Shown: positions 9,788 to 14,235, numbered from the stretch's first letter. The stretch is 64,000 nucleotides of DNA from Escherichia coli (GCF_003334355.1 NZ_QOWP01000002.1), one strand, 5' to 3'. Notes: generated by a model not told the origin, from the letters alone. Numbers and translations: made by a program.

Positions 9788-12700
9788 TTACCATTTCACC
9801 GTCATCGACAAAAACCCTGCCGTCTGGGCAAAATCATCACTCCCTTTCTGCCACGCCACGCTGCCGCGCAGGGACACTCGCTGACTGATATTGCCCGTGA
9901 CTCCCACTTTTATTTCACCCCGTTGCTTCACCGCATCGTCACTGATAGTGCTGCCATCCTCTTCAATTTCCGTCGAATGGGGATCGTGATAATAATTCAG
10001 ATCTAATGTTGGTATGACATGAACAGCGGTACGCCATTCGCTGTGTAAACCCAGCCGCGTCTGAATATCATCACCCTGCGATTGTGACACGCGCGCACGG
10101 TTAGCGGCGGTAAAATCATCCTGCTGCACGCCCTGATAAATCACCTGCGCCTGCGGTTCAATCACCACACCACGCCCCGGTAACCACTGATACCCCGCCT
10201 CCAGCGAGGCGATAATCCCCGACGAGTGGTAATGATCTGTGCCATCTTCTTGTTCGGAAACATCATTGCTAAACCACGCGTATTGCAGCCAGCTATCCAG
10301 CCAGGCCCCTTGCTTCTGATTACCGTGCTGAAACCAGCTTGATGTCAGCCCAACGGCATAACCGTGGTTCTGGTTATCGGCGCGAGTTCCGGTCATATTC
10401 GAGCGGCTGTCGCCCTGGTTATCGCTGTAGCCACCAACAATCCCAAGCATCCACTTGCCATCCGTGCCCCAGCGCCCGCTAAACAGATCGCCGCTAAGTT
10501 GCACCGTAGAAGTGTCTTCATGTTGAGCCAGTTGCCCCGCTGCTGTGTAATGATAATCTCCGCCGATAACACGTAAATTCAGCGTCTGACCATCGCCACC
10601 TGCGTGATCGCGTCGCTCCATCATAAACGCCTGATTTGCCGCCCGCAGGTTATTGAGATAACCGCCAACTTTGGCATTCAGCACCGGCTGGTAAACAGGC
10701 ACAGGGGCCGGGTCGGGGGTTGGGTCAGGATCCGGCGTGGGATCAGGATCGGGAGTCGGGTCTGGCTCAGGTGGCGATGGCGGCGTTACTTCTTGCGATC
10801 GCAGATACCAGTCGTTGTTATCTTCCACCAGCGTGTAGTCATACGCTCCCATATTGACGTAGCCGCTGCCTGCCAGACTGAACTGCGCATTGTTTTGAAA
10901 CTGCGTGGGATCAGCTGCGAAATCAACCACTTTAATGCCTGTCGATGTCGGCTCACCAATCCCTGTAATGGAGTTAACCACCACAGTTGTGTTGCCAGCA
11001 GTATTACCGTTCATCACCAATTGATCGCTTACCGAGTCATCGCCGTTTAATTCGCTATCGAGCAGTAGCGTACCGCCGCCGGTATAATCACCGTTTACCG
11101 TCAGCGTATCGCCAGCGACGCCATTTTGCAGGCTAACCGCACCGGACGTATTGGTCAGATTGCCATTAACCGTCACGTTGGAAAGATAAGTCAGGCTGTC
11201 AGTTTCAAGGTTGGTATTAAGCTCACCTGTCAACGTCACACCATCGGTGGCATTCACCAGCGTCCCATCGCCGTTAAATAGTGAGGCATTAAGGGCGACG
11301 GAAGTATCCTGCCCGGTCAGGCGCAAAACCGTACCATCGCTGATGTCGATAGTGCCGCTGGAAATAGCATCAATTGACTGAATATCCTGATCCGCGCCAG
11401 TAACGAACGTTGCCCCATCACCAACCCACAGTGACGAAGCATAAGGAAGGATATCAGCAACATCACCTTTCAGGGTGCCTTCTTCGACACGTACCGCCGA
11501 CTGCGTTGTACCGCTGGCGGTCAGCTCCAGTGTACCAGCCCCCGTTTTAGTCAATGTGCTACCCTCATCCTGATGCTGCCCGCTGCTGTCAGCCATCAGT
11601 GCGCCCCACTGCGTGTCTACCCCCGCATCAACTGCCACTTCACCGTCGGCGCGCATTTCAATATCACGTCCGTGGCCTGCCGCATCTGAACGCGTGTCAA
11701 CGTCGGAGGTAATCTCCATCACGCTTTCTTGTTGCTTATCGGTAAAGATAACCTGGCGGTTATAGTGGGTATCTCCAAGCTGCGAGTTGTCGCTCACCAT
11801 CAGCGTACCGGAGGCGATTTGTGTTGTGCCCAAATAACTATTATTGTTTGCCAGACTTACCTGCCCGTCGCTCGCATCGACCACCACGTAGACGCCATCT
11901 TTCCCGTCGCCGCCGATATGCAAATTGTCGCCACCTGCAAGATCTACCACATCCTGACTGCCGATAACCGTTCCGCTGCTGCCACTGACTTCAAGGCCAT
12001 CGTTGTATGATGTGCCGCTCTGCCAGGTGGAGAAATCAGAGAGATCGAGCACACCGCCGTTTAACACGATCGACTGCGGATCGTCCTGGAGAGCGGTAAG
12101 ATCTGCCGCGTCGCCTTCCAGCGAAAGCACCGCACCATCATCAACGACTATATCGCCGGTTAGCGCCATCGACTGCGCCCCTGCCAGCACGTAGCTGCCG
12201 TTTTGCGCAATGGTGAGCTGACCAGCACCTTCGATGATGCCAGCAAAACTGCCCTGATTAACAGTAACGTTGCCACCAGCATCGATATTTAAAGTGCCAT
12301 TCTGAAAGCCCGTCAATGCGTGCACAAAAGTTTGTTGGGTCGAGCCAACGTTTAGCTCAGCCTGATTCTGATACTGATCAATACTCCCTATCGTCAGACC
12401 GTAGCAGTCTTGCGGATCGTCCTGGCAATGCGTATCGCCGACATTCATCAGGGAGTTGCTGCGGCCCAGGGTAACTTCACCGTTTTCAATCTGCATCTCA
12501 CCAGTAAAGTCATTGTTATCTGCATTAAGTACCAGATCGCCGGAACCTGTTTTGGTGATTAACCCGGTACCAGCAATAGAGTCAACAGCTCCGTCATTCT
12601 CTGTATTGCCAATAACCAGCGTTTTTCCGTCGGCAATATCAAAGGTAACTTCACTTAAGCCGAGATACATAAAGCCACCCGCCGCAGAGGAAGGACCATC

Positions 12701-13540
12701 TCCATAGCCTGCTGCGCTATTGTTCTCATCGACTAACACGCCTCCGTTCTGGCTGTAGCTGTCATCAACAGAAATATCAATAAGATAGGGAGCCGTCACG
12801 CTATTGGTATATATCGCCCCGCCATAACCTTCGGCAGTGTTATTTGTAAAGGCAGTGTTATTTACTATCGTATAACCTGAAGGATGCTTGCTGTCGCTAT
12901 TATTATCGGTAACATCGATTGCCCCGCCATCGCCATCACTGTAACTTGTTGATGTATATGCCTGGTTGTTATCAAAAATAACATCACTTAAATAAACGTC
13001 ATTATTAATGGTATAAATTGCGCCACCTTTGCCATCATTAGCGATGTTATTGCGAAACATGGCGTTAGTGACACGTAAATCGACGGCACCAGTATCGTTA
13101 GTACCAGAAGAATAGATTGCGCCACCATAGCCGCCTGCGACGTTACCGGAAAAAATAACATCAGTAAGATTCAGCGTTGAGTTTTCTTTAGCAAATATGG
13201 CCCCGCCGTTATTATATTCTCCTGTAACGGTGTTATTGGCAAACAGAGTCATTCCAGTTTCATTTTCTGGTAATAGTGAAAATTCCGCTCCTTGTTGCAA
13301 AAATACGGCCCCACCGCTGGCGTTATTGGTCATATCCGAAAAAACCAGCCATTGCCCATCAGCGATACTCCAGTCCTGCGTAATGCCTGAAAGGCTTTGC
13401 CTGCTGGCCTGACAACTCGCTTTGACATCATATCCCTGGCATGAATCAGTGACCGCCGCGACACCGTTAGCAGAGAAAAGAGATGCAATCATTGACGGGA
13501 GTAAAGATAAATACTCCTTGCGTAGAAAGATAATCCGCAT
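9788..13540 (-). CDS. yfaL: Autotransporter adhesin (AIDA-like passenger, C-terminal beta-barrel)
   Basis: 1250-aa ORF with N-terminal signal peptide, a passenger rich in GGAIY-type repeats, a Pro/Thr/Asp linker and a C-terminal barrel ending in aromatic residue W. Confidence 0.9.
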   Translation of the reverse strand: MRIIFLRKEYLSLLPSMIASLFSANGVAAVTDSCQGYDVKASCQASRQSLSGITQDWSIADGQWLVFSDMTNNASGGAVFLQQGAEFSLLPENETGMTLFANNTVTGEYNNGGAIFAKENSTLNLTDVIFSGNVAGGYGGAIYSSGTNDTGAVDLRVTNAMFRNNIANDGKGGAIYTINNDVYLSDVIFDNNQAYTSTSYSDGDGGAIDVTDNNSDSKHPSGYTIVNNTAFTNNTAEGYGGAIYTNSVTAPYLIDISVDDSYSQNGGVLVDENNSAAGYGDGPSSAAGGFMYLGLSEVTFDIADGKTLVIGNTENDGAVDSIAGTGLITKTGSGDLVLNADNNDFTGEMQIENGEVTLGRSNSLMNVGDTHCQDDPQDCYGLTIGSIDQYQNQAELNVGSTQQTFVHALTGFQNGTLNIDAGGNVTVNQGSFAGIIEGAGQLTIAQNGSYVLAGAQSMALTGDIVVDDGAVLSLEGDAADLTALQDDPQSIVLNGGVLDLSDFSTWQSGTSYNDGLEVSGSSGTVIGSQDVVDLAGGDNLHIGGDGKDGVYVVVDASDGQVSLANNNSYLGTTQIASGTLMVSDNSQLGDTHYNRQVIFTDKQQESVMEITSDVDTRSDAAGHGRDIEMRADGEVAVDAGVDTQWGALMADSSGQHQDEGSTLTKTGAGTLELTASGTTQSAVRVEEGTLKGDVADILPYASSLWVGDGATFVTGADQDIQSIDAISSGTIDISDGTVLRLTGQDTSVALNASLFNGDGTLVNATDGVTLTGELNTNLETDSLTYLSNVTVNGNLTNTSGAVSLQNGVAGDTLTVNGDYTGGGTLLLDSELNGDDSVSDQLVMNGNTAGNTTVVVNSITGIGEPTSTGIKVVDFAADPTQFQNNAQFSLAGSGYVNMGAYDYTLVEDNNDWYLRSQEVTPPSPPEPDPTPDPDPTPDPDPTPDPAPVPVYQPVLNAKVGGYLNNLRAANQAFMMERRDHAGGDGQTLNLRVIGGDYHYTAAGQLAQHEDTSTVQLSGDLFSGRWGTDGKWMLGIVGGYSDNQGDSRSNMTGTRADNQNHGYAVGLTSSWFQHGNQKQGAWLDSWLQYAWFSNDVSEQEDGTDHYHSSGIIASLEAGYQWLPGRGVVIEPQAQVIYQGVQQDDFTAANRARVSQSQGDDIQTRLGLHSEWRTAVHVIPTLDLNYYHDPHSTEIEEDGSTISDDAVKQRGEIKVGVTGNISQRVSLRGSVAWQKGSDDFAQTAGFLSMTVKW
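10705..10770 (-). repeat. Short tandem DNA repeats encoding the (PDPT)n linker of YfaL
   Basis: + strand reads gggtcgggggttgggtcaggatccggcgtgggatcaggatcgggagtcgggtctgg, a ~12-nt periodic unit translating to PEPDPTPDPDPTPDPDPTPDPAPVP. Confidence 0.7.
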
Positions 13541-14073
13541 ATTAATCTAACCATCATTTTCTATAAGACGGCGTATTTAATCGCATTATACGATATGGAA
13601 TATCTTTCTTTTGTAAATTGTTCAACCCGGTGCAATGGCTATTTTGTTATTATTTGATGAATAATATCAGTGCGTCATAATTCAAGTTAATAACCTTCAG
13701 GGATATCAGTTATATTTAAACTAAATTAAAGTCATGAATAATTTTCTTATAATATAAGGTAAATTAACAAAATGGCTTAGCATTTAACAATAACCGAATA
13801 GAAAACAACCATTTCGCCATCAACAATCTCTTACATTCGCTTATATATTGACCACAACTGATACATCAGATTATGTGATGACTCGTGCTTAGATCAATTT
13901 TTGCAATCATTAGCAAAAAGATTAATAAACCATCTATATCAATTTATCTAACCTATTATGCCGTTCAAGAAATCGCCGAACAGTTATTTTTAACAAATTT
14001 TTCTCTTCCCATTGACTTTCCCGGACACCTTGTCTGACCTAAGGTGCGCGAAAGCCACTTTTTCCTTCCTGAG

Positions 14074-14094: not shown

Positions 14095-14122
14095 TGCAAG
14101 AGGGTCATTTTCACACTATCTT
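14094..14122 (+). promoter_or_regulatory. Candidate sigma70 promoter of nrdAB (-35 TTGCAA, 17-bp spacer, -10 TATCTT)
   Basis: Hexamers read directly from the sequence. The predicted start site lies ~105-110 nt upstream of the nrdA ATG, consistent with the known long leader. Confidence 0.4.
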
Positions 14123-14158
14123 GCAGTGAATCCCAAACATACCCCCTATATATAGTGT
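14111..14158 (+). promoter_or_regulatory. Two NrdR-box-like palindromes overlapping the nrdA promoter
   Basis: cacactatcttgcagtg and ccctatatatagtgt resemble the NrdR box core (CwAtATaTwG flanked by aca/tgt). Confidence 0.45.
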
Positions 14159-14235
14159 TCTAAGCAGCTTCCCGTACTACAGGTAGTCTGCATGAAACTA
14201 TTGCGGAAAGAATTCCAAAAACAGGTACGACATAC

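Follow-up and report, generated by a model that had tools for sequence, protein, structure and literature searches.

Within a 64-kb stretch of the Escherichia coli chromosome (the window), we analysed positions 9788-14235 (4448 bp), which hold yfaL (ehaC), the gene for an autotransporter adhesin, and the spacer that separates it from the divergent gene nrdA. In total, our observations make it very probable that this is the ordinary, already characterised yfaL-nrdA divergent locus of E. coli, made up of a YfaL linker in which insertions and deletions (indels) arise slowly, an adenine- and thymine-rich (AT-rich) tract next to yfaL that is coated by the nucleoid protein H-NS, and a separate nrdA module. 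Published work already covers the gene and its cryptic state, as well as the promoter island bound by H-NS and the control elements of nrdAB. The anatomy, domains, repeat statistics, length classes and conservation described below come from the present analysis, and the binding of H-NS, Fis, DnaA and NrdR as well as the crypticity of yfaL are taken from published work.

To this picture we make two small additions. First, yfaL has a single indel hotspot, the Pro-Asp/Pro-Thr (PD/PT) linker, which comes in seven or more lineage-fixed length classes and has a codon-scrambled repeat. Second, the spacer consists of two clearly separated modules, one next to yfaL that evolves fast and one next to nrdA that is nearly invariant. 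These additions are of use for yfaL allele typing and for surface display by YfaL; their importance is small and they open no new question.

YfaL is a type Va autotransporter present throughout E. coli

A preliminary description of this DNA had identified the gene as yfaL with nrdA as its divergent neighbour, and NF007285, Pfam and the RefSeq annotation confirm both the identity and the layout. YfaL matches NF007285, the NCBIfam YfaL/EhaC equivalog, over residues 1-1250 of 1250 with 2804.9 bits against a cutoff of 1459, and TIGR01414 over amino acids (aa) 807-1250 with 385.6 bits. In a Pfam search run on aa 52-1250, with residue numbers corrected by +51, PATR and Pmp passenger repeats were found within aa 98-690 in addition to an autochaperone domain and a C-terminal beta-barrel. 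With its 12-strand beta-barrel, its beta-helical passenger and autochaperone, and an equivalog score above cutoff, YfaL is a member of the type Va autotransporters. By eye, its N terminus (MRIIFLRKEYLSLLPSMIASLFSANGVAA) looks like a putative Sec signal peptide. The features of yfaL on which the following sections draw are:

9788-13540, minus strand: yfaL (ehaC), AIDA-I-type (type Va) autotransporter adhesin of 1250 aa (open reading frame (ORF), NF007285, RefSeq annotation)
9857-10576, minus strand: C-terminal beta-barrel translocator, aa 989-1228 (Pfam PF03797, Autotransporter beta-domain, E=1.7e-34)
10694-10786, minus strand: proline-rich PD/PT linker TPPSPPEPDPTPDPDPTPDPDPTPDPAPVPV, aa 919-949, ~31 residues (sequence, self-identity, allele lengths)
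10735-10746, minus strand: CTGATCCCACGC, the linker copy of an exact 12-nt direct repeat (present twice, with no copy expected by chance)
10829-11161, minus strand: autochaperone domain AC_1, aa 794-904 (Pfam PF18883, E=2.4e-18)
10903-10914, minus strand: second copy of the exact 12-nt direct repeat CTGATCCCACGC, 168 bp upstream of the first within yfaL, just past the C-terminal end of the autochaperone match (FAADPTQF)

Over the 4448 bp, the locus shows 100% identity with strain 14EC007 and 99.7% with K-12 strains. It was matched in 5426 of 5426 complete E. coli genomes, with at least 80% covered in 5416, and the ubiG-yfaL-nrdA context is the same in all 5426. Thus, the window carries the same gene as K-12 and enterohaemorrhagic E. 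coli, where it is known as YfaL/EhaC, with a full-length equivalog match and the same domain order.

The YfaL linker is an indel hotspot with a repeat in the protein

The preliminary description had placed a Pro-Asp/Pro-Thr linker in YfaL, and we find it at aa 919-949 between the autochaperone domain and the helix and barrel. It had also held that the linker is encoded by near-perfect 12-nt tandem repeats, and this is not what the DNA contains. Tandem Repeats Finder, used at its lowest allowed minimum score of 30, reported no repeat within 9000-15000, and a direct repeat search of the linker with a 6-nt seed reported none either. Compared with itself, the 54-nt linker core reaches an identity of 50% when shifted by 6 nt, 57% when shifted by 12 nt and 72% when shifted by 18 nt, and no exact word longer than 8 nt occurs in it twice. 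With the 18-nt period, agreement is 12/12 for codon position 1, 12/12 for position 2 and 2/12 for position 3. We conclude that the real period of the linker is 18 nt, (PDPDPT)x3, and that it resides in the protein and not in the DNA, where synonymous codons are shuffled.

For linker length across E. coli, a 261-bp linker-spanning segment was searched against the 5426 genomes, 60 rank-spaced rows were taken, and the search was repeated with the allele of strain SE15 (L008) as query. Length classes were assigned from match length versus query length in a total of 118 distinct genomes, as follows:

76/118 genomes (64%): linker length unchanged relative to the window
26/118 genomes (22%): linker shorter by 18 bp
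9/118 genomes (8%): linker longer by 6 bp
4/118 genomes (3%): linker shorter by 24 bp
1/118 genomes: linker shorter by 12 bp
1/118 genomes: linker shorter by 9 bp, in a copy marked as frameshifted by RefSeq
1/118 genomes: 168-bp deletion

Length variation, which the preliminary description had predicted, is therefore present as an outcome, with seven length classes, the unchanged one included. In the 11 fetched alleles that were inspected, the length changes are whole PX dipeptides, and the C-terminal ends of the linker form a mosaic (APVPV, EPTPA, IPA, APDPTPA, GPTPA and APAPTPA). All linker changes resolved at the sequence level are whole-codon and in frame (-24, -18, -12 and +6, which are multiples of 6 nt, and one of -9). 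When 12 full alleles, up to ~670 substitutions apart, were aligned, all indels were in or touching the linker save one 6-nt event, which marks the most divergent alleles (L006, L007 and L008). Hence, the linker is the indel hotspot of yfaL. In allele L002, the linker contains a perfect 2 x 18-nt duplication (CCTGACCCAACACCCGAT), and in strain VTB97022v (L009) a 168-bp in-frame deletion removes 56 aa, its ends being the two copies of CTGATCCCACGC. The duplication and the deletion are direct signs of a repeat-mediated origin.

Among the 5420 matching records, 171 are at least 99% identical to the 261-bp linker allele of the window; 6 of the 5426 genomes gave no match to the linker region. In GN25 (L077), yfaL is a pseudogene with a frameshift and a linker that is shorter by 9 bp, and in H168 the annotation of the yfaL copy does not go beyond a generic beta-barrel protein.

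Linker length changes slowly and in frame

In the preliminary description, slippage on a near-perfect repeat was given as the cause of length variation. This cause is not borne out, as the DNA is degenerate and length is constant among near-identical alleles. All of the sampled matches with at least 99.7% identity (12/12) span exactly 4448 bp, and fully aligned alleles that are no more than 3 substitutions apart elsewhere have the same number of repeat units. The alleles of the window, K-12 and VTB97022v are at most 3 substitutions apart outside the linker; the window and K-12, which are 3 substitutions apart there, have linkers of equal length. The equal repeat number among near-identical alleles argues for a slow, lineage-level polymorphism and not for a classic slippage tract.

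An alternative closer to the preliminary description joins a slippage-prone linker that yields frequent length variants to a shared AT-rich spacer that couples the silencing of yfaL by H-NS and Fis to nrdAB. On the side of the linker, the existence of length classes, the perfect 18-nt duplication in one allele and the one deletion bounded by the 12-nt repeat speak for it. These are set against the finding that no DNA tandem repeat is present (57% identity at period 12), the constant length among near-identical alleles, and the size of the repeat units, which are multiples of 3 nt; because the resolved changes keep the frame, on/off switching is impossible. The part of this alternative that concerns the spacer is taken up below, where its probability is given.

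Contingency loci are simple-sequence repeats that cause phase or length variation in surface proteins, for example in adhesins of Neisseria and Haemophilus. Like these, yfaL encodes a surface adhesin, in which a peptide unit is repeated a number of times that varies from isolate to isolate. Unlike these, its linker DNA has a degenerate repeat (72% identity at best) and not perfect or near-perfect tandem copies, its units are in frame so that no shift in frame or promoter spacing switches expression, and its length is stable among near-identical alleles; copy number did not differ among close isolates, a result from a small sample that gives a rough bound. We conclude that the resemblance of the linker to a contingency locus is superficial and that the linker does not belong to this class.

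A second alternative is that linker diversity arises mainly by homologous recombination between diverged yfaL alleles under diversifying selection, with repeat misalignment in a minor role. The window and K-12 differ in the yfaL allele only, with E925 and ...DPAPVPV in the linker of the window where K-12 has D925 and ...DPEPTPA; this difference is a patch of 10 single-nucleotide polymorphisms. Of the 12 differences over the 4448 bp, 10 fall inside 10655-10766 (112 bp), in a background that is otherwise 99.9% identical. This packing is the signature of an imported patch and suggests, from the sequence comparison, that 10655-10766 is a short recombination import. Moreover, the linker C-terminal mosaic is common to otherwise distant alleles, divergence of the passenger reaches ~17% inside E. 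coli, and positive selection on yfaL has been reported (PMC9110714). By contrast, recombination moves alleles and does not create changes in length by PX units, and two events point directly to a repeat-mediated origin: the perfect duplication of 18 nt and the 168-bp deletion with repeats at its ends. A paralogous gene-conversion donor for the patch was considered and rejected, because every genome has a single match. We judge it possible but somewhat doubtful that recombination is the main source of linker diversity.

For the slowly changing linker that we favour, the following mechanism is proposed. The PX spacer would form an extended, rigid stalk that sets the stand-off of the passenger from the outer membrane. 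Its DNA is a diverged 18-nt repeat with scrambled synonymous positions, in which exact matches of only 8 to 12 nt are left. Rare misalignment or recombination between these short residual repeats may lead to the in-frame gain or loss of whole codons, mostly PX units, and recombination may then reshuffle and spread the resulting alleles, giving a handful of lineage-fixed length alleles and not rapid switching.

The tract next to yfaL is AT-rich, promoter-dense and a published H-NS target

The spacer between yfaL and nrdA (13541-14235) is 695 bp long and has a guanine-plus-cytosine (GC) content of 33.7%. The preliminary description had called all ~700 bp extremely AT-rich. This applies to the yfaL-proximal 13541-13960, which at 28.1% GC is the lowest 420-bp stretch of the 64-kb window (mean 51%, standard deviation 5.8%), and not to the nrdA-proximal 275 bp (13961-14235), which hold the nrdA controls at 42.2% GC. 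Low GC values (0.40-0.44) extend into yfaL, over about its first 700 bp. In a consensus scan, 13541-13960 contained 9 sigma-70-like sites versus 3.1 +/- 1.5 in shuffled sequences. Thus, the tract combines AT-richness with an excess of promoter-like sites, as is typical of a promoter island. Two features are listed for this part of the spacer:

13541-13960, no strand: AT-rich, promoter-dense, yfaL-proximal part of the spacer, corresponding to a published H-NS-bound 'promoter island' (GC, sigma-70-like sites, literature)
13870-13897, minus strand: predicted yfaL sigma-70 promoter, TTGATC-16-CATAAT (consensus scan)

The predicted promoter implies a 5' leader of ~320 nt for yfaL, and its hexamers TTGATC and CATAAT are listed for yfaL in a study using genomic systematic evolution of ligands by exponential enrichment (SELEX) (PMC3946193). 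The same study by Shimada et al. marks 'HNS' in the yfaL<>nrdA spacer (PMC3946193). Among the 78 'promoter islands' of K-12 described by Panyukov and Ozoline in 2013 is the 534-bp spacer yfaL(-)/ypaB(-) (PMC3661553), and its code 'A' in Table 1 of that paper denotes binding by H-NS in all of the compared studies that used chromatin immunoprecipitation on microarrays (ChIP-chip). The likeness of the tract to the H-NS promoter islands of K-12 is therefore direct, as the yfaL/ypaB spacer itself is listed and has 28% GC and three times the expected promoter-like sites here; we found no material difference. Silencing of the AT-rich region by a nucleoid protein, as put forward in the preliminary description, is supported by this published ChIP-chip and SELEX work. 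It has further been reported that yfaL gives a biofilm phenotype only when an inserted constitutive promoter drives it (PMC3764049), which is consistent with a cryptic native promoter. Altogether, these observations suggest that the tract is a fast-evolving, promoter-dense sequence of 28% GC that travels with yfaL, and that an H-NS coat on it may keep yfaL cryptic under laboratory conditions.

The tract could instead be a compositional relic of horizontally acquired or fast-drifting DNA that silences nothing, with yfaL being weakly expressed because of a poor promoter. Such a relic would fit the divergence of the tract beyond detection by blastn between Escherichia species, the low GC of the 5' 700 bp of yfaL (0.40-0.44), as expected of foreign DNA, and the lack of enrichment of the H-NS consensus motif. 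It does not account for the low GC (~0.28) that E. albertii has kept despite sequence turnover, for the H-NS placed on the tract by published ChIP-chip and SELEX, or for promoter-like sites at three times expectation. We consider a mere relic improbable.

The nrdA control module is nearly invariant and separate from the yfaL tract

The preliminary description had located the nrdAB control elements in the same spacer, and they are visible on its nrdA side:

14074-14094, plus strand: two DnaA boxes, TTATCCACA (14074-14082) and TTATGCACT (14086-14094), separated by AAG and abutting the nrdA -35 hexamer (motif search and sequence reading)
14094-14099, plus strand: nrdA -35, TTGCAA
14117-14122, plus strand: nrdA -10, TATCTT
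~14112-14128, plus strand: NrdR box 0, palindrome-like
~14143-14158, plus strand: NrdR box 1, palindrome-like
~14174-14189, plus strand: NrdR box 2, palindrome-like

The positions of the -35, the -10 and the NrdR boxes were inferred by comparing the sequence with PMC12176259. Read in this way, the region has a pair of DnaA boxes beside the -35, and NrdR boxes that surround and follow the -10, as in the published nrdAB control region; the DnaA boxes, the -35 and -10 and the sequences of NrdR boxes 0, 1 and 2 are all present and nearly invariant, and no difference was found in the strain of the window. Regulation of nrdAB by DnaA has been described (PMC8203912). Literature for Fis and IciA sites upstream of nrdAB is cited in PMC8203912, and H-NS is named as a repressor of nrdAB, after Cendra et al. 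2013, in PMC4009431 and PMC12176259. Reviews and later papers (PMC4009431, PMC12176259 and PMC8203912) describe H-NS and NrdR as repressors of the class Ia operon and name DnaA, Fis and IciA as further regulators.

The two parts of the spacer evolve differently. Of 12 E. coli alleles, 11 have a spacer of 695 bp and one has a spacer of 681 bp; 6 of 200 columns are variable in 13991-14190, as compared to 8-30% of columns per 50-bp bin in 13541-13990. Scanning genome contigs for the 20-mer that contains the DnaA box pair returned mostly unrelated bacterial loci and 4 useful Escherichia loci; no nrdA upstream region from outside Escherichia, such as that of Salmonella or Citrobacter, was recovered by it. 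In these, from E. albertii, E. whittamii and two other Escherichia, blastn homology resumes at ~13893 to 13962 and runs into nrdA at 89-98% identity. The YfaL protein is only 68-79% identical in other Escherichia species. E. albertii has kept a ~700-bp spacer with a GC of ~0.28 next to yfaL, and this retention of low GC while the sequence turned over suggests that composition is maintained. Taken together, these observations divide the spacer into two modules: a yfaL tract of 28% GC and an almost invariant nrdA control module of 42% GC, to which the DnaA boxes, the core promoter, the putative NrdR boxes and the Fis and IciA sites known from the literature belong.

The alternative of a slippage-prone linker and a coupled spacer can now be weighed on its second part. 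In its favour, the predicted yfaL promoter points away from that of nrdA at a distance of only ~200 to 260 bp, and published work has H-NS on the island as well as repressing nrdAB. The nrdA module is far more conserved, with a sharp boundary near 13962, which looks like independent constraint. From the alignments, this sharp modular boundary appears to weaken mildly the case for regulatory interplay between yfaL and nrdAB. Neither an invariant repeat number nor an absence of H-NS or Fis occupancy was found (repeat number varied in the 118 sampled genomes), and the earlier idea is thus not refuted. Those of its parts that find support were known before; what it adds is the possible coupling of yfaL silencing to nrdAB. 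Considering both of its parts, we judge this alternative quite unlikely.

Proximity is the support for some further suggestions. An H-NS filament from the island at 13541-13960 might extend or bridge to the upstream activating region of nrdA (~13960-14095); if it reached nrdA, the state of the island would contribute to the reported repression of nrdAB by H-NS. Conversely, bursts of nrdA transcription in the cell cycle would send negative supercoils into the island and would transiently loosen the silencing of yfaL. In addition, lineage-specific linker lengths could tune the reach of the adhesin to the thickness of the O-antigen or capsule of the lineage. Taken jointly, this coupling by bridging or supercoils and this tuning of reach are conjectures to which we give little credence.

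Returning to the locus as we read it, with a slowly changing linker, an H-NS-coated tract and a separate nrdA module, several points weigh against it. The H-NS occupancy of the tract is known from literature studies of K-12, and the strain of the window is not K-12. The high-affinity H-NS motif TCGATAAATT is not enriched, with 67 occurrences in the window versus 61 expected and 2 in the spacer. The third-position matches in the linker (2/12) are not significantly below a rough expectation of ~5/12 from codon usage; for this reason, we do not claim selection against slippage, and the idea that codon scrambling was selected to prevent slippage was dropped. Finally, the length classes come from rank-spaced rows of a biased RefSeq collection, so that the tempo of linker change is only roughly bounded.

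Neighbouring genes and minor observations

From ORF calls and the RefSeq annotation, the gene order is gyrA(-), ubiG(+), yfaL(-), ypaB(-), nrdA(+), nrdB. Two of these genes flank or overlap the nrdA control module:

13965-14108, minus strand: ypaB, annotated 47-aa ORF overlapping the upstream control DNA of nrdA (RefSeq annotation)
14236-16521, plus strand: nrdA, class Ia ribonucleotide reductase alpha subunit, divergent neighbour of yfaL (ORF, RefSeq annotation)

A search of NCBIfam with YpaB returned no family match. In SE15, the ypaB start codon is lost (CAT to CAG on the plus strand) and the ORF is unannotated. On these grounds, ypaB appears doubtful as a gene, and its conservation is probably that of promoter DNA and not that of a protein. 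SE15, which we take to be of phylogroup B2, also has a 13-bp deletion (CGGAAAGAATTCC) in the 5' untranslated leader of nrdA at ~14204-14216, ~20 nt before the start codon. In the other matches of ~83.5% identity, the alignment likewise breaks off past query position 4416.

When 9500-14600 was scanned with Rfam, the spacer gave no RNA family; the scan yielded only sub-threshold matches to naRNA4 and a chance match to CRISPR-DR. The three naRNA4 matches lie at 9672-9797 between the convergent 3' ends of ubiG and yfaL, the last of them overlapping the yfaL stop codon; the best has 54.4 bits versus a gathering score of 59.5. They are taken to be repetitive extragenic palindromic (REP) elements.

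At a scale of 420-bp windows, further stretches of the 64 kb with a GC below 0.36 are 34711-35171, 51691-53306, 54761-55311 and 56681-58161, of which 51691-53306 is the only one that also stands out at the 695-bp scale. These may be further AT-rich or foreign segments.

DNA related to the nrdA upstream region is also found outside the chromosome. The phages P1 and P7 and P1-like phage-plasmids carry a ~115-140 bp copy of 13983-14112 with 78-95% identity (L012:4001-4139; L076:1201-1315). Such copies occur in 317 plasmids of PLSDB and in 15 phage records, and at 235 plasmid places of the E. coli genome set. In P1, the copy lies just upstream of hot, which encodes a homologue of DNA polymerase III theta, and the record is annotated '94 pct identical to E. 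coli DNA region containing two predicted DnaA boxes'. The homology ends before the NrdR boxes. Moreover, the contig scan found the exact 20-mer TTATCCACAAAGTTATGCAC, which has two DnaA boxes 3 bp apart, in ~59 unrelated bacterial genomes (L014-L075), including Paenibacillus, Alkalibacterium, Selenomonas, Pectinatus and Massilia. These loci are presumably origin or dnaA-promoter regions, and the spacing of the DnaA box pair seems to be widely reused.

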